From: Clostridia bacterium
GTDB lineage: Bacteria > Bacillota > Clostridia > Oscillospirales > UBA644
Length of the DNA stretch: 32,698 nucleotides
Direction: 5' to 3'
Assembly: GCA_017424085.1 (NCBI GenBank)
Contig: JAFPBP010000267.1
Coordinates: 1-32,698 of the forward strand
This document shows positions 26,768 to 32,698 of the stretch, in pieces (positions within the stretch are counted from its first letter, which is position 1; every line of letters begins with the position of its first letter). The position numbers were made by a program, and so were the translations under genes. The notes beneath the pieces are model-generated. The model was given only the letters and a program-made list of their open reading frames with translations, ran no database searches and had not been told where the DNA came from.

Positions 26768-27901
26768 TTAAAGTTCGACAAATTGATGGGTTTGCGCCGA
26801 TTTGCGGGCGGCAAGACACATGCGCGCGCTGAGAATTCCTTCCGACAAGGGAGAATGAGAAACGTCCTCCCCCTTCATGACAGCAATGAAGTTCTCCGCC
26901 AGACGGCGGTCTCCTCCGCTGTGGGATCCTGCGCTCTGAATGGTGATCCGATCCTCACGGTCGGACATGTGATCAAAATAGGTGACGGTTTTGGCGTTGA
27001 AATCGAATTCTACGGTGCCCTTGTATCCGATGAAGCGGGCGCCCCGCTTTCCCGCGCCCTTGCGGGCGATGAAGTTCTGGGTGTAGGTGACGCACAAGCC
27101 GTCGTCATACTGCATGAGAACGGTGGCGCTGTCGTGATTCCCCGTATCCACGGCAAAGCAACATTTCGCCGTGGGGACCGCATACTTGGAATCGTACTTT
27201 TCCAGCTGATAGGGCGACTCGGGGCAGGTGAGATATTCGGGACAATCCTTGCACGCCAGCCCTGCGGGCTTGTTGCCCTTGAAGACCATCTTGGACTCCA
27301 TGGCGCAAATGGTTTTGGGGCCGCTGCGTCCGAGAACGTAGTTGATGTAATCCAGATCGTGGGTGGATTTCTGCAGGAACAATCCGCCCGTGATCGATTC
27401 ATCCCGATACCATTTGTGATAGTATCCGCGGGCATAGTTTACGTTATTGTACGCCTGCACCTGAGCAACCTCGCCGATGACGCCGCGATCGATATAATCC
27501 TTCACCACGTCCACCAGCTTTGCCAGCCGCAAGGGGAAGGAGACCACGGTTTTCTCATTCATGAGGGGCTGAATGGTTTCCAGCGCCGTCAACTCCTCCT
27601 CGGTGATGCTGACGGGCTTTTCCAAAAAGAGAGGAAGCCCGTAACGCGCCACCAGAAGGGCGTATTTGGTATGCAGATCACAGCGCGTGCCCAACACGAT
27701 CCCGTCCAGAGTTTCGCAACGAAGCATCTCCTCCGCATCCGCGTACCAGGCACAGTTGGGAAATTCCTCTCCCCGTGCCTTTTTAATTTCCTCCCAACGG
27801 GGATCGGCGATCGCCTTCACCTCGCATTGACCGAAGGAGGCAATGCTGCTCCAGACCGAGGCAGAGCGGCTACCGAAGCCGATAAATCCGATCTTCAACA
27901 T
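26768..27901 (-). CDS. Gfo/Idh/MocA-type oxidoreductase, paralog A, with the Cys motif C-x2-C-x5-C-x20-CC
   Basis: The ORF is 377 aa with an N-terminal dinucleotide-binding start (KIGFIGFGSR) and the family EKP motif (LFLEKPVS). A GGAGG RBS lies in the 15-nt gap after paralog B. The motif cysteines are encoded at 27158-27253. Confidence 0.85.
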   Translation of the reverse strand: MLKIGFIGFGSRSASVWSSIASFGQCEVKAIADPRWEEIKKARGEEFPNCAWYADAEEMLRCETLDGIVLGTRCDLHTKYALLVARYGLPLFLEKPVSITEEELTALETIQPLMNEKTVVSFPLRLAKLVDVVKDYIDRGVIGEVAQVQAYNNVNYARGYYHKWYRDESITGGLFLQKSTHDLDYINYVLGRSGPKTICAMESKMVFKGNKPAGLACKDCPEYLTCPESPYQLEKYDSKYAVPTAKCCFAVDTGNHDSATVLMQYDDGLCVTYTQNFIARKGAGKRGARFIGYKGTVEFDFNAKTVTYFDHMSDREDRITIQSAGSHSGGDRRLAENFIAVMKGEDVSHSPLSEGILSARMCLAARKSAQTHQFVEL

Positions 27902-27916
27902 AACGAACGCCTCCGA

Positions 27917-29050
27917 TTACAGCTCCACAAAAGTATGGGTCCGGGCGGACTTGCGGGCGGCAAGGCACATCTTGGCGCTCAGAATGCCCTGAGACAGGGG
28001 GGAATGGGACACGTCCTTTCCGCTCATGACGTCAATGAAATTCTGCGCCAGATTCAGATCGCCGCCGCTGTGAGAGCCCGTGGACTGAATGGAGATGTGA
28101 TCCACACGGTCGGACATGTGATCGTAATAGGTGACGGTCTTGGCGTTGAAATCGAATTCCACGGTGCCCTTATAGCCGATGAAACGGGCGCCCCGCTTTC
28201 CCGCACCCTTACGGGCGATGAAGTTCTGGGTGTAGGTCACGCACAAGCCGTCGTCGTACTGCATGAGAACGGTGGCGCTGTCGTGGTTGCCCGTGTCGGT
28301 GGCGTAGCAGCATTTTGCGTCGGCGATGACCCGCTTGGGATCGTACTTTTCAATGTTGTACGAAGACTCGGTGCAGGTGAGATATTCGGGGCAATCGGCG
28401 CATTTCACCCCTGCGGGCTTGTCTCCCTTGAAGACAAGCTTGGACTCCATGGCACAGATCGTCTTGGGACCCGTGCGTCCGAGCACGTAGTTAATGTAAT
28501 CCAGATCGTGAGTGGATTTCTGCAGGAACAATCCGCCCGTAATGTCGGTATCGCGATACCAGCCGTGATAATAGATGCGTGCGTAATTGACGTTATTGTA
28601 CGCCTGCACCTGCGCCACCTCGCCGATGACACCGCGATCGATGATATCCTTGACCACGGTCACCAGCTGAGCAACCCGCAGGGGGAAGGAAACCACGGTC
28701 TTTTTGTCCATATGAGGAATGGATTCCAGCTGAGCAATCTCCTCATCGGTGATGCTGACCGGCTTTTCCAAAAAGAGGGGGATATCGTACTTGGCAACCA
28801 GAAGAGCGTACTTGGTATGGAGATTGCAACGGGTGCCGACGAACACGCCGTCAAGCTTCTCCTTCTCCATCATTTCCTCCGCGTTGGTATACCAGGTGCA
28901 ATCGGGAAGCTCCTCTCCCCAGACTGCCTTGATCTCCTCCAGACGGGGATCGGCGATGGCTTTCACGGTGCAAAGACCGAAGGGTGCCAGATTCACCTTC
29001 CAGAAGCCCGAGGCGCGGGATCCGAATCCGATAAATCCTACATTCAACAT
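27917..29050 (-). CDS. Gfo/Idh/MocA-type oxidoreductase, paralog B, with the same Cys motif
   Basis: The ORF is 377 aa and is collinear with paralog A. It shares long identical blocks with A, for example DTGNHDSATVLMQYDDGLCVTYTQNFIARKGAGKRGARFIGYKGTVEFDFNAKTVTY. An AGGAGGAAAA RBS lies upstream. The motif cysteines are encoded at 28307-28402. Confidence 0.85.
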   Translation of the reverse strand: MLNVGFIGFGSRASGFWKVNLAPFGLCTVKAIADPRLEEIKAVWGEELPDCTWYTNAEEMMEKEKLDGVFVGTRCNLHTKYALLVAKYDIPLFLEKPVSITDEEIAQLESIPHMDKKTVVSFPLRVAQLVTVVKDIIDRGVIGEVAQVQAYNNVNYARIYYHGWYRDTDITGGLFLQKSTHDLDYINYVLGRTGPKTICAMESKLVFKGDKPAGVKCADCPEYLTCTESSYNIEKYDPKRVIADAKCCYATDTGNHDSATVLMQYDDGLCVTYTQNFIARKGAGKRGARFIGYKGTVEFDFNAKTVTYYDHMSDRVDHISIQSTGSHSGGDLNLAQNFIDVMSGKDVSHSPLSQGILSAKMCLAARKSARTHTFVEL

Positions 29051-29184: not shown

Positions 29185-29213
29185 TTGACAAGGCACTCAG
29201 AATCTGTTATAAT
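29185..29213 (+). promoter_or_regulatory. Consensus SigA promoter with extended -10 for the deacetylase gene
   Basis: TTGACA (29185-29190), a 17-nt spacer and TATAAT (29208-29213) are preceded by TGT, giving the extended -10 form TGnTATAAT. The site lies 23 nt before the ATG at 29236. Confidence 0.75.
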
Positions 29214-29235
29214 AGGGAAAAGGAGGATGGATTCC

Positions 29236-29946
29236 ATGAACTTCATGCAACGCACCGGAAAAAAGAAGGCTGTCACCTTCAGCTATGACGACGGGGTCAC
29301 TCAGGATATCAACCTCATCGAAATGATGAACCAATACGGTTTGAAGGGCACCTTCAATCTGAACTCGGAGTTATTGGGAAAGCCCGGCATTCTGATTCGG
29401 GAAAACCAAAAGATCTCCCACTATAAGATCCGCCCCGAGGACGTCAAATACGTCTACGACGGGCACGAGGTAGCGGTCCACACCCTGACCCATCCCCTGT
29501 TGACCAAGCTTTCCGACGGGGAGATCATCCGACAGGTGGACGAAGATCGGAAGAATCTGCAGGATCTGGTGGGGTACGACGTGGTGGGGATGGCATACCC
29601 CTGCGGCGGGCAGAACAACGACGATCGCGTAGCTCGGGTGATTCGGGAGAACACGCCCTTGCGCTACTGCAGAACCATCACAAACACCGACAGCTTTGCT
29701 CCGCAGAACGATCTGCATCGGTTCAATCCAAACGTATATCACGTGATGGAATTCGACCGACTCATGGAGATGGGGCGACGGTTTTTGGAGTCCGAAGCGG
29801 AGGGCCCGCAGATCCTTTACGTATGGGGGCATTCCTACGAGCTGGACTTTCATCCCGACAACCGCGTCAAAATGGAAGAATTTTTCAAGCTGATCGCCAA
29901 TCACCCCGATATTTATTACGGCACGAACGCCGAGGTTTTGCTTTGA
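29236..29946 (+). CDS. Polysaccharide deacetylase family protein (NodB homology domain, CE4)
   Basis: It has VTFSYDDG (the TFDDG-type motif 1) and VHTLTHP (the H-x3-H motif 2). I set the start at the ATG at 29236 (MNFMQRTGKK), 9 nt after GGAGG. The track start at 29113 lies upstream of the promoter. Confidence 0.8.
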   Translation: MNFMQRTGKKKAVTFSYDDGVTQDINLIEMMNQYGLKGTFNLNSELLGKPGILIRENQKISHYKIRPEDVKYVYDGHEVAVHTLTHPLLTKLSDGEIIRQVDEDRKNLQDLVGYDVVGMAYPCGGQNNDDRVARVIRENTPLRYCRTITNTDSFAPQNDLHRFNPNVYHVMEFDRLMEMGRRFLESEAEGPQILYVWGHSYELDFHPDNRVKMEEFFKLIANHPDIYYGTNAEVLL

Positions 29947-30023: not shown

Positions 30024-32225
30024 TTATGCGCGCTTACGGGAAATAAGAACCACAACGCCGCCTGCAACCACGATCACCGCGGCAATGATCGCAATGATGA
30101 TCCAGAGCGCCACGGATCCGGAGTCTCCGACGTCGGTCGCAGAACCGTTGGAATCGGTTTCGGTTTCCGTATCGGAGGGAACGGTGGTGTCGGTCTCGGT
30201 TTCCGACGGAGAAACGGAGGTATCGGTCTCGTTGGTGTCGGTCACCGTTGCAGACGAAGACACGGTGGAATCGGTCTTATCGGTGGTCGAGTCGGTCTTG
30301 GTCGCGGTATCGGAGGAAGGTTTATCGGTCACAGAATCGGTCTTCGTGGAAGTATCGGTAGAGGGCTTGTCGGTTACCGTATCGGTCTTGGTAGAGGTGT
30401 TCGTGGAAGGCTTATCGGTGATCGAATCGGTCTTGGTGGAGGTATTCGTGGAAGGCTTATCGGTGGTATCGGTGGTGGTACCCGTAGACGTGTTCGTGGA
30501 GGTAGACGTATTGGTGGAGGGTTCGTCACCCGAGGAAGCCTTCAACTGGGAAGAAAGATCTCTCTTAACCGTAAAGGAAACGATGTTCTTTTCCCCTCCG
30601 GGAGCGGCGAGAGGTCCTGTGTTATGCAGACGGAAGGTGATATGATCCTTATAGAAGTTGATCTCAAGAAGCTGAACCACCTTCAGCTCCTCAGCGCTGA
30701 GTTTACTCTGATGAGAGTTGCCGTAGAAGCCCAAAGATCCCATGAATGCGGAGATCCAGCCGTTGGTCTTATAGCTGTTATCGGACTGGACCGTGGCACC
30801 GTTTGCGGCAAAGACAAGCTCGGAGGTTGCGAACTGCGCGATGCGGGAGTTATCTCCGTGAATGTGCCCATAAGCGTAGATTGCGTTGGGGAATGCAGAG
30901 AGGACGCTGTTGATCTTATTCTGCGCGGGGCTGTTGGAGGAAACAACCTGCTTGGTGGCGCCGCCGTTGACGACGGTGGGCATGGAGGTGACGGGGTAGT
31001 GGCAGAAGACCACAACGGTCTTATCCTTGCCGATCTTGTTCAGCTGATCCTCAACCCATTCGATCTGCTCCACGTAAATGCCGTTATAGCCCGTCTGGCT
31101 GACCGCGCGGCGATCGCCGAAGGGAGTATTGATGCCGATGAAGGGGATTCCGTTGACGGTATACTTATAGCAAAGGACCTCTTCCTGATATGCAAGGGGC
31201 ACACCGGCGGTAGAAAGCTTCAGCTCGGCGTAGGATGCGGAAGCGTCGTATTTCCCGACGCCCTTTTCCATGAGGGAACCCCAATCGTTGGAGTTTACGG
31301 TAGTATATCCGCCGCTCATATGAACCGAGGGCTCGGGGTCATGGTTCCCCGTAACCACCATAACGGCGCCGTCCTTGGTTGCGGTCTGATACAAGGCATA
31401 GTTCCGATCCAGCAGAGCCTTGATCACGGCGTCGCCGCCCGTCCAGGTAAGGTTGTTGCCGCTGGAATTGTTCCGACGACCGGTCACGTCGCCGCCGATG
31501 AGCAGGACGTCAACGCCGCCCAGAATATTTTTGATGTAATCTACGGCATTCTTGGTGGATTGGCGGTAGGGGGGATTCCAATACTGAATGCCGTATTCGT
31601 GGTGCATATCCGAGAAGCAGGCAACGGAAAGGAGGGGTTCCTCCGTTTCCTCGTACTCCTTGGGAATCTCAACCGTGCTGTACAGCTTAAACTCGCGGGC
31701 ATTCAGGCTATTGCACTGATAGCGGCTGTCGTCCACGTTGGTGAAGCGGAGATATTCCTTCTGATCGTTTTCAAAGGTGACCTTCGCACCGGAGATGATC
31801 ATCTTGACCGTTGCTTTTTCTTCGGTCAAAACGATCTTTCCCTCGGTCAGATTCATATATTTTTTCTGGCTGACCGAATAAAGGGAATATTTTCCGTTGC
31901 CCTCGTCGGTGATCTTCCAAAGGAATTCATCGGTGGGGCTGGATTCGGGCATGGGAGCATAATCCAGACTGTCGTATTCGGTACCGCCCTTCTTGATCAC
32001 GGGGGTGCCGAGGACGGCGCACTTTTGGATCGTGACGTTCTGATCATCCTTGATGCTGCTCGCAGTGGCAATGACGTATTCCTTACCCGAAACGAAGTTG
32101 TTCGTCTGATCGGTCAGGCGTCCCGTGAGAGCCGCAGACGTTTTCATTCCCATAAAAACGGGCGCGATCAGGGCAACGGCAACACAGAGAGCAAGGAGTT
32201 TCTTTTTCAGGGATGTTCCGCTCAT
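30024..32225 (-). CDS. Surface-exposed calcineurin-like metallophosphoesterase with a signal peptide, an unknown N-terminal domain, a Thr/Ser/Asp-rich repeat stalk and a C-terminal TM anchor
   Basis: I set the start at the ATG at 32223-32225 (MSGTSLKKKLLALCVAVALIAPVF), 7 nt after AAAGAGG. Metallophosphoesterase motifs are present (FSDMHH, IGGDVTG, VTGNHD, YGHIHGD). The C-terminus is ALWIIIAIIAAVIVVAGGVVVLISRKRA. The track ORF (882 aa, to 32672) is an artefactual extension through non-coding repeats. Confidence 0.85.
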   Translation of the reverse strand: MSGTSLKKKLLALCVAVALIAPVFMGMKTSAALTGRLTDQTNNFVSGKEYVIATASSIKDDQNVTIQKCAVLGTPVIKKGGTEYDSLDYAPMPESSPTDEFLWKITDEGNGKYSLYSVSQKKYMNLTEGKIVLTEEKATVKMIISGAKVTFENDQKEYLRFTNVDDSRYQCNSLNAREFKLYSTVEIPKEYEETEEPLLSVACFSDMHHEYGIQYWNPPYRQSTKNAVDYIKNILGGVDVLLIGGDVTGRRNNSSGNNLTWTGGDAVIKALLDRNYALYQTATKDGAVMVVTGNHDPEPSVHMSGGYTTVNSNDWGSLMEKGVGKYDASASYAELKLSTAGVPLAYQEEVLCYKYTVNGIPFIGINTPFGDRRAVSQTGYNGIYVEQIEWVEDQLNKIGKDKTVVVFCHYPVTSMPTVVNGGATKQVVSSNSPAQNKINSVLSAFPNAIYAYGHIHGDNSRIAQFATSELVFAANGATVQSDNSYKTNGWISAFMGSLGFYGNSHQSKLSAEELKVVQLLEINFYKDHITFRLHNTGPLAAPGGEKNIVSFTVKRDLSSQLKASSGDEPSTNTSTSTNTSTGTTTDTTDKPSTNTSTKTDSITDKPSTNTSTKTDTVTDKPSTDTSTKTDSVTDKPSSDTATKTDSTTDKTDSTVSSSATVTDTNETDTSVSPSETETDTTVPSDTETETDSNGSATDVGDSGSVALWIIIAIIAAVIVVAGGVVVLISRKRA
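30285..30464. repeat. In-frame 45-bp tandem repeat (4 good copies plus a degenerate fifth at 30240-30284) encoding TDKPSTNTSTKTDS[IV]
   Basis: The protein reads TDKPSTNTSTKTDSI / TDKPSTNTSTKTDTV / TDKPSTDTSTKTDSV / TDKPSSDTATKTDST / TDKTDSTVSSSATVT. The matching DNA units (ggcttatcggtg..tcggtcttggt...) are visible on the plus strand. Confidence 0.85.
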
Positions 32226-32307
32226 AGTTTTACCTCTTTCCTTCGACGGACAGGTTTTTTGAAGAATTCCCTTAAGGGAATTTTCCATGGATCGTCCGTA
32301 TGCCATC

Positions 32308-32336
32308 ATTGTAGCATAAACCGACAGAAAAAGCAA
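32308..32336 (-). promoter_or_regulatory. SigA-type promoter with extended -10 for the metallophosphoesterase gene
   Basis: The reverse strand reads TTGCTT, then 17 nt, then TACAAT preceded by TGC (-35 at 32331-32336, -10 at 32308-32313). It lies about 80 nt upstream of the ATG at 32225. Confidence 0.6.
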
Positions 32337-32392
32337 GCCTTTTTTCGAAATGAAAAAGAAAAGCCACAACCGACGGAGGGACGACGAGCGGT

Positions 32393-32437
32393 GACGAGGG
32401 GGACGAGGGGGACGAGGGGGACGAGGGGGACGAGGGG
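32393..32437. repeat. Perfect 9-bp minisatellite (GACGAGGGG) x5
   Basis: Five identical head-to-tail units are read directly at 32393-32437. Degenerate copies (gacggaggg, acgacgagcggt) precede them at 32372-32392. Confidence 0.95.
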
Positions 32438-32440
32438 TTG

Positions 32441-32698
32441 TTCCTTTTTCTTTTCGGGTGAAAAGAAAAAGGAACCGAAAAAGAAAAGCCATGTCCGACG
32501 GATTTTCATCCGTCGGAGGAAGGTTAACACAATAAATTGACAGATCAAACGCAAGGAACATCCCTTTTCCTTTCGGGTAGAAAGAAAAGGAACCGAAAAA
32601 GAAAAGCCATAGCCGACGGATTTTCATCCGTCGGAGGAGGGTTAACACAATAAATTGACAGATCAAACGCAAGGAACATCCCTTTTTCTTTCGGGTGA
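32441..32698. repeat. Tandem array of about 118-bp units, each with two hairpins. About 2.2 units are visible and the array continues past the right edge.
   Basis: ggaaccgaaaaagaaaagccat occurs at 32471 and 32589, and ttaacacaataaattgacagatcaaacgcaaggaacatccc occurs at 32524 and 32642, so the period is 118 bp. Units differ at only a few positions. Hairpin 1 is ttcctttttctttt/aaaagaaaaaggaa (32441-32474). Hairpin 2 is ccgacgga/tccgtcgg (32494-32515 and 32612-32633). Confidence 0.9.

Follow-up and report, generated by a model that had tools for sequence, protein, structure and literature searches.

A strain-variable 118-bp tandem repeat upstream of a metallophosphoesterase gene in an uncultured Clostridia lineage, a likely promoter-region minisatellite

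Minisatellites of the MIRU-VNTR and MLVA-typing kinds are intergenic, head-to-tail arrays with units of ~40–130 bp and strain-variable copy number. NsiR1 (Nostoc/Anabaena) and LhrC1–4 (Listeria) are tandem small-RNA arrays in which every unit carries a promoter of its own and gives a proven transcript. In M. tuberculosis, promoter tandem repeats whose copy number varies between strains have been documented for dop (57 bp), lpdA, and cysG (PMC12817950). Intrastrand triplex motifs have been tied to local genomic instability, and the search criteria for them comprise three stems of 6–15 nt (Y, R, and mirror R), loops of 1–6 nt, and at most one mismatch (PMC4666352).

The array described here occupied positions 32440–32698 of the window (the whole 32,698-nt stretch of DNA that was analysed) and reached its end. 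Judged from its sequence, it displays the features of a bacterial VNTR or promoter tandem repeat, namely a non-coding head-to-tail unit, a strain-variable unit count, and a unit that belongs to a promoter region.

Organization of the array and its units

The segment 32442–32696 was reported by Tandem Repeats Finder as a repeat with a period of 118, 2.2 copies, 93% matches, and no indels (score 447), which bore out the description given by the sequence-only reading (head-to-tail units of ~118 bp, two of them plus the start of a third), and a repeat search of the window returned a 112-nt pair at a spacing of 118 with 96% identity. Exactly two occurrences each of the 22-nt GC hairpin and of a 38-nt spacer segment were counted in the window, while neither occurred in any of 100 dinucleotide-preserving shuffles. 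Three units were delimited, all on the minus strand: unit 1 (32440–32557) with a perfect type-1 AT hairpin, orthologous to the proximal unit of sister-strain contig L030 and to the sole unit of sister-strain contig L031 (see below); unit 2 (32558–32675) with an imperfect type-2 AT hairpin, orthologous to the distal unit of L030; and the beginning of a third unit (32676–32698; 21/118 nt, 95% to unit 2), which was ended by the window edge. This beginning comprised one arm and the loop of the AT-rich hairpin in a further run-length variant, T5-C-T3, and it was matched by the covariance model of the unit core, the match being incomplete at the 5′ end.

In each unit, repeated head to tail across 32440–32698, an AT-rich and a GC-rich hairpin were combined with a conserved spacer; read toward the metallophosphoesterase gene, the order was GC hairpin, three variable nucleotides plus TGG, CTTTTCTTTTTCGG, AT hairpin, and a spacer of ~48 bp. 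The spacer (32518–32560, with a second copy at 32636–32678; minus strand) read CTTGCGTTTGATCTGTCAATTTATTGTGTTAAC, aligned with the −35 element plus spacer of the real promoter as a decayed promoter copy (see below), and contained the TTGACA that had been pointed out in it before.

The AT-rich polypyrimidine/polypurine hairpin of unit 1 (32440–32475) was a perfect 16-bp stem with a 4-nt loop and the arms GTTCCTTTTTCTTTTC/GAAAAGAAAAAGGAAC. Its type-2 counterpart in unit 2 (32561–32591), delimited by inverted-repeat and folding analysis, was imperfect, with 11 pairs plus a bulge on the plus strand and, as RNA on the minus strand, 13 pairs including three G-U wobbles. An AT hairpin of 11–14 bp had been described, and such a hairpin does exist, but it is longer than that in copy 1 and imperfect in copy 2. 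The GC-rich hairpin, TCCGACGGAT-4 nt-ATCCGTCGGA, was located at 32494–32517 in unit 1 and at 32613–32634 in unit 2, with an energy of about −18 kcal/mol; it had been given as an 8-bp stem, and it was present in both units but at 9–10 bp with a 4-nt loop. The T-rich stretch said to follow it on the minus strand was likewise present (CTTTTCTTTTTC) but offset, beginning 5–6 nt past the GC stem.

The matched run-length changes in the two arms of the AT hairpin had been taken by the sequence-only reading as a sign of selection on structure. This claim was not upheld: only two hairpin alleles exist, the second of which is the weaker one (−13.3 kcal/mol for type 2 versus −21.4 kcal/mol for type 1), and a covariation statistic is not meaningful because there are just these two distinct alleles. 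Template-switch (quasipalindrome) mutation yields matched run-length changes in both arms of an inverted repeat without selection, and the changes are no proof of selection because this mutation gives the same pattern.

Unit 1 further harbored, on the plus strand at 32443–32487, a Y-R-R′ motif (CCTTTTTCTTTTC / GAAAAGAAAAAGG / CGAAAAAGAAAAG) that fits the intrastrand triplex criteria. This triplex-type motif (CTTTTTCTTTTC / GAAAAGAAAAAG / GAAAAAGAAAAG: pyrimidine stem, complementary purine stem, and mirror purine stem) had 13-nt stems, loops of 4 and 3 nt, and one mismatch; it was matched once in the 32.7-kb window versus none in 30 shuffled windows and was found in all three strains (window, L030, and L031), while unit 2 failed the same criteria.

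Directly left of the array, between unit 1 and the degenerate unit (see below), lay a G/C-rich microsatellite that was absent from the sequence-only reading: (GACGAGGGG)x6 at 32383–32437, with a period of 9, 6.0 copies, and 95%. Its counterpart in L030 (1484–1517) had a period of 10 and about 3 copies, and that in L031 (about 930–965) had shrunk to a single C9 run. A G-quadruplex pattern (at least 4 G-runs of at least 3, with loops of 4 nt) was matched in the window and in L030, in both on the strand antisense to the metallophosphoesterase gene (the plus strand of the window). The predicted non-B motifs would fit the variability at the array, but the sequences are of low complexity.

Relatives of the unit were sought widely. 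Rfam 15 gave 0 matches in the window at gathering thresholds and, within 32200–32698, sub-threshold matches at chance level only, in agreement with the earlier remark that no named ncRNA family could be recognised. The array had also been stated not to be a CRISPR, and this holds: the whole 118-bp unit repeats without unique spacers, and the CRISPR-DR matches of Rfam were below threshold and all outside the array. No further unit copy was found elsewhere in the 32.7-kb window; exact-pattern scans with three stretches of the unit, chosen where the copies are best conserved, found none in species-representative genomes, JGI metagenome contigs (two patterns), or viral contigs; BLAST of the unit against plasmids and phages gave no match; and 46 related loci (about 475 kb of 508 kb searched) contained no unit by BLAST or covariance model. 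The covariance model of the unit core matched only its training copies and the degenerate proximal copies. On the question of whether the unit is locus-specific or dispersed, raised by the sequence-only reading, the answer was that no dispersed copies were present in the window, the related loci, the plasmids, the phages, or the sequence collections scanned, and the many-loci distribution of a REP/MITE/MIRU-like dispersed family was not seen in the sequences searched.

Flanking genes and sister strains

The metallophosphoesterase gene (30024–32225, minus strand) encoded a 733-aa protein bearing a signal peptide, a linker of Thr/Ser-rich repeats, and a membrane anchor at its C terminus; its homologues carried PF00149, the nearest being 65–71% identical. 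The array had been placed upstream of the promoter of this gene, and that position was confirmed. Within the gene, coding tandem repeats (30153–30520, minus strand; 33–48 nt, 45-nt period, 4.2 copies) encoded the Thr/Ser/Asp/Lys-rich linker (..TDKPSTNTSTKTDS..) between the catalytic part and the C-terminal membrane anchor, and the other-strain contig L001 breaks at these repeats. Farther along were two adjacent paralogous Gfo/Idh/MocA-type oxidoreductase genes (26768–27901 and 27917–29050, minus strand; 377 aa each, ~78% nucleotide identity), which adjoined a polysaccharide deacetylase gene (about 29200–29946) and a glycoside-hydrolase-like gene. A look-up of the window's metallophosphoesterase found no exact record, the look-up of the oxidoreductase neighbour yielded only short contigs that end before the array, and both the metallophosphoesterase homologues, which had short upstream regions, and a synteny search with the oxidoreductase led to other genomic contexts and no array.

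The 5′ leader of the gene formed a stem-loop (32245–32299, minus strand) ending just before the ribosome-binding site; it contained the near-perfect 20-bp palindrome GAATTCCCTTAAGGGAATT (32264–32283) nested in the outer stem ACGGAC...GTCCGT, with a fold of −18.9 kcal/mol (z −1.5). The leader was kept in L030 and L031 save for two small changes in L030, where the A-run is shorter and GAAGG has become GAAAG beside the ribosome-binding site. The stem-loop may serve as an operator or in control at the mRNA level. The leader stretch TCCGTCGAAGGAA (32238–32250, minus strand), beside the ribosome-binding site, was 92% complementary over 12–13 nt to the minus-strand CCTTCCTCCGACGGA, which sits 5′ of each GC hairpin (32509–32521 and 32627–32638); this complementarity may be chance in biased sequence.

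Two of the three minus-strand frames ran across the array without a stop, which lets gene callers annotate a spurious ORF over it. One array-crossing spurious ORF translation was used as a protein-database query; it retrieved one 117-aa "protein" and thereby contig L030 (ENA ERZ27298615, 2798 bp) from a sister strain, on which the intergenic region is complete. The database entry itself (P0009; 117 aa, L030 1270–1623) was a spurious frame over array, microsatellite, and promoter. When the ORF translations were checked, no plausible coding frame was found, as expected from the earlier statement that the array is non-coding. The DUF4325 neighbour protein, used as query, led to a third strain, L031 (ENA ERZ28436048). 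Coding DNA of the same species in L001 and L002 was ~98% identical to the window, and L030 and L031 aligned at ~96% over stretches taking in the indel-rich intergenic region.

On the far side of the array was a gene for a 337-aa HTH + ATPase-like + DUF4325 protein (L030 125–1281), transcribed away from the array from a perfect TTGACA-17-TATAAT promoter. Three direct repeats (..TTATTACT) at 21-bp spacing, plus one inverted copy, overlapped this promoter, and the gene was also present in L031 and L033–L043. Together with its upstream region it was ~80% conserved at the DNA level in relatives whose genomic surroundings differ widely and whose contigs are often very short; >7800 homologues were found. 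The DUF4325 gene thus has the look of an autoregulated cassette that is widespread and possibly mobile or multi-copy. As a source of the array this cassette was rejected, its conserved upstream region ending within a few bases of the array start.

Toward the metallophosphoesterase gene, the order was thus DUF4325 cassette end ...GATTACTGTTCCCTCT, n units, C-rich microsatellite, degenerate promoter unit, structured leader, and ATG. In L030 and L031 the array was short, lying between the divergent DUF4325-regulator cassette and the metallophosphoesterase promoter, and its far-side boundary was identical in the two (...GATTACTGTTCCCTCT/CGACGG, with the slash at the boundary), while the equivalent boundary hairpin in the window was preceded by another spacer and hairpin arm. 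The locus had been suspected of being recombination-prone, and copy number did differ between three strains at one locus with identical flanks: (i) L031 had one unit core without a full spacer, (ii) L030 had two units, and (iii) the window had at least 2.2, that is, two units, after which the sequence ended within one more spacer and hairpin arm. All three sequences were short-read metagenome assemblies, with L031 at only about 2.5x coverage, and these unit counts are lower bounds because short-read assemblies can collapse repeats. Unit types were kept across strains, the perfect type 1 adjoining the microsatellite and the imperfect type 2 lying farther out; because orthologous units retain their type-specific differences, the duplication is older than the strain split, and retention of the array since before that split leaves room for a function.

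These sister strains also settled the doubt, voiced earlier, that the array might be an assembly artefact at the contig end. The array reaches the window end, and assemblers often break or duplicate sequence at repeats; however, the copies differ at several positions plus one indel, and identical unit variants were found in two independent assemblies (L030 and L031) made with other software from other samples, on the strength of which the array is taken as real and an artefact is given practically no credence. What seems to be an open-ended array where a contig stops can simply be a short repeat on which the assembly broke.

The downstream promoter and the origin of the unit

The likely metallophosphoesterase promoter (32308–32336, minus strand) read TTGCTT-17 nt-TACAAT with a TG extension (TGcTACAAT) and was conserved with other-species homologues, the comparison set being the upstream regions of L007, L003, L005, L044, and L046. 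It was missing from the promoter-scan output although 9 of its 12 positions match and it lies within the stated limits of the scan.

Overlapping this promoter was a degenerate promoter-proximal unit (32314–32377, minus strand), overlooked in the sequence-only reading, which comprised half a GC hairpin, a T-run, a short AT hairpin, and the −35 element plus spacer of the real promoter. It was matched by covariance model R1 at 32339–32393 (E 0.02) and by a repeat pair at 32347–32377. The local alignment of the unit with the proximal promoter region scored 58 versus 22.6 ± 4.4 for shuffles (0/500 reached the score) and covered the 3′ half of the GC hairpin, the T-run, and the short AT hairpin before entering CTTGCTTTTTCTGTCGGTTTAT (−35 plus spacer). 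In turn, the single-copy upstream region of L007, an other-species homologue with 73% protein identity, is a clear ortholog of this proximal region (score 61 versus 23.5 ± 4.8, again 0/500 shuffles), and the two shared a T-run, a weak AT hairpin just upstream of the −35 element, and the promoter; the AT hairpin has strengthened from about −5 to −6 kcal/mol in the proximal copy and in L007 to −13 and −21 kcal/mol in the units. As read from these alignments, the repeated unit is part of the downstream gene's promoter region, from half hairpin to −35/spacer. A duplication that takes in the 5′ leader as well was rejected, since past the −10 element the alignment is not significant (78/1000 shuffles reached the score).

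Five homologous genes each had one strong TGnTAnAAT promoter and no upstream tandem repeat. The ancestral state would therefore be a single promoter, and the array, given that state, a species-specific tandem amplification of the promoter's upstream part. Such an origin, with the unit as a decayed duplicate of the gene's own promoter-upstream DNA, was not raised in the sequence-only reading and explains the unit most simply. The distal units had TGTTAA in place of TACAAT as the −10 counterpart, the promoter scan (sigma-70 consensus only) found no sigma-70-type promoter in the units on either strand, and the perfect plus-strand TTGACA of the spacer had no −10 partner at 16–18 nt. Since the −10 element was lost, the distal copies are most likely promoter-dead.

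Interpretation of the array

The array is probably a minisatellite (VNTR) of the promoter region, peculiar to this species, that slippage or unequal recombination maintains and resizes and that exerts at most a modest effect on transcription. It would have originated by tandem duplication of ~115 bp located just upstream of, and partly inside, the metallophosphoesterase promoter, with the promoter-proximal copy keeping a working-looking promoter (TTGCTT-17-TGcTACAAT). Units would then have been gained and lost via replication slippage or unequal recombination between the 118-bp repeats, a process probably promoted by the hairpin-/triplex-prone tracts and the adjacent G/C-rich microsatellite, and such gain and loss would account for the differing unit numbers of the strains (1, 2, and at least 2.2, the last with the start of a third). 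We infer that the distal units would not fire as promoters, that any effect of the array on gene expression would come through upstream spacing or insulation, and that the array has no dedicated RNA-coding or protein-binding function.

Among the alternatives, a contingency locus, in which the copy numbers of the 118-bp units and of the 9–10-bp microsatellite set the output of the metallophosphoesterase promoter as a reversible heritable dial, was thought unlikely, yet it ranked ahead of the others. Both repeats vary in all three strains, their position relative to the promoter runs from about −50 to beyond −400, the encoded enzyme bears a signal peptide plus a membrane anchor, and there is a precedent in the M. 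tuberculosis promoter tandem repeats (PMC12817950); however, distal units without a −10 element add no promoters as in the M. tuberculosis cases, the locus has no known activator site, and 118 bp does not correspond to an integral number of helical turns. A relative of this idea, in which a non-B-DNA-driven copy-number switch would tune the surface metallophosphoesterase or, as a variant, small RNAs forming hairpins or triple helices would be transcribed by a non-sigma-70 route and act on the leader, was held to be a long shot. Equally improbable was an insulator/terminator array, one of the roles put forward by the sequence-only reading, whose GC hairpins and U-runs would stop transcripts from the DUF4325 side and so shield the metallophosphoesterase promoter. 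The stable hairpin (about −18 kcal/mol) is indeed followed by CUUUUCUUUUUC on the gene's strand, and one copy per strain was flagged as terminator-like by a scan (unit 1, minus strand, in the window), but the U-run starts 5–6 nt after the stem, whereas the DUF4325 terminator of the same organism has its U-run directly after the stem. There is also no obvious read-through to be stopped, because the upstream neighbour in the sister strains is transcribed away from the array; moreover, the promoter scan found no rightward promoter toward the array in the DUF4325 cassette end, and a single copy suffices in L031. The offset U-run and the divergent neighbour together speak against the terminator proposal.

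Tandem small-RNA genes, one per unit, had also been suggested, and pairing with ribosome-binding sites is conceivable for the C/U-rich CCUUCCUCC. Both strands of the unit fold well (z −2.1 to −6.3), and the unit has a terminator-like end on the gene strand and includes a 13-nt stretch 92% complementary to the leader/RBS region of the gene; however, low folding energy is a trivial outcome of two inverted repeats, and the 13-nt complementarity is one among many short pairs reported. With no sigma-70-type promoter detected on either strand of the units, no Rfam match, and no conservation beyond one species, small-RNA genes were regarded as very improbable. The same low standing was given to an array of regulator-binding sites, for example, for the adjacent DUF4325 HTH protein with one site per spacer. 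Of all parts of the unit, the spacer is the most alike in the copies, with 38 identical nt, it holds a small inverted repeat, TTGA-N4-TCAA, and a regulator gene is adjacent in the sister strains; however, recent duplication accounts for this likeness, the conserved operator-like repeats of the cassette (TTATTACT, 21-bp phase) are different ones that are missing from the units, and L031 does without any full spacer.

If the array is the promoter-region minisatellite that we favour, one is hereby documented in an uncultured Clostridia lineage, which is of modest value in itself. Its duplication history can be read directly, from the ancestral single promoter in related species through the working proximal copy to the decayed distal copies, and the array offers a ready strain marker. 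Should copy number be shown to alter expression, promoter-tandem-repeat phase variation, recently described in M. tuberculosis, would extend to gut anaerobes.

Comparison with known systems

Unit 1 resembled ITxF motifs in fitting the search criteria (stems of 12–13 nt with at most one mismatch) and in its predicted triplex, and it differed from TMECO, which is G/C-rich and dispersed in Enterobacteria, in that its motif was A/T-rich, confined to a single locus, and perfect in one unit type only (PMC4666352). With Rho-independent terminators the unit shared a GC-rich stem of 9–10 bp, a loop of 4 nt, and, on the gene strand, a U-rich run farther downstream, but its U-run was offset by 5–6 nt, and there was no co-oriented upstream gene to terminate. 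With the small-RNA arrays NsiR1 and LhrC1–4 it shared head-to-tail intergenic units of ~100 nt, a terminator-like hairpin in each, and a location beside a regulated gene, while a sigma-70-type promoter per unit was not detectable.

The closest matches were of the minisatellite kind. Like MLVA-type minisatellites, the array was intergenic, head-to-tail, of comparable unit length, and strain-variable; MIRUs, in contrast, are dispersed over many loci, while the 118-bp unit occurred at one locus only in the data searched. Like the M. tuberculosis promoter tandem repeats, it was a promoter-region tandem duplication directly upstream of a gene, with strain-variable copy number and a unit of tens to ~100 bp. 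In M. tuberculosis each copy is reported to be an additional promoter that may raise promoter strength (PMC12817950), whereas the distal copies of the present array no longer carry a −10 element; the array also differs in coming from an uncultured Clostridia lineage and in having a 118-bp unit with two strong hairpins. Taken with these likenesses, the array is a fairly ordinary, known kind of bacterial minisatellite rather than a new RNA or defence element.
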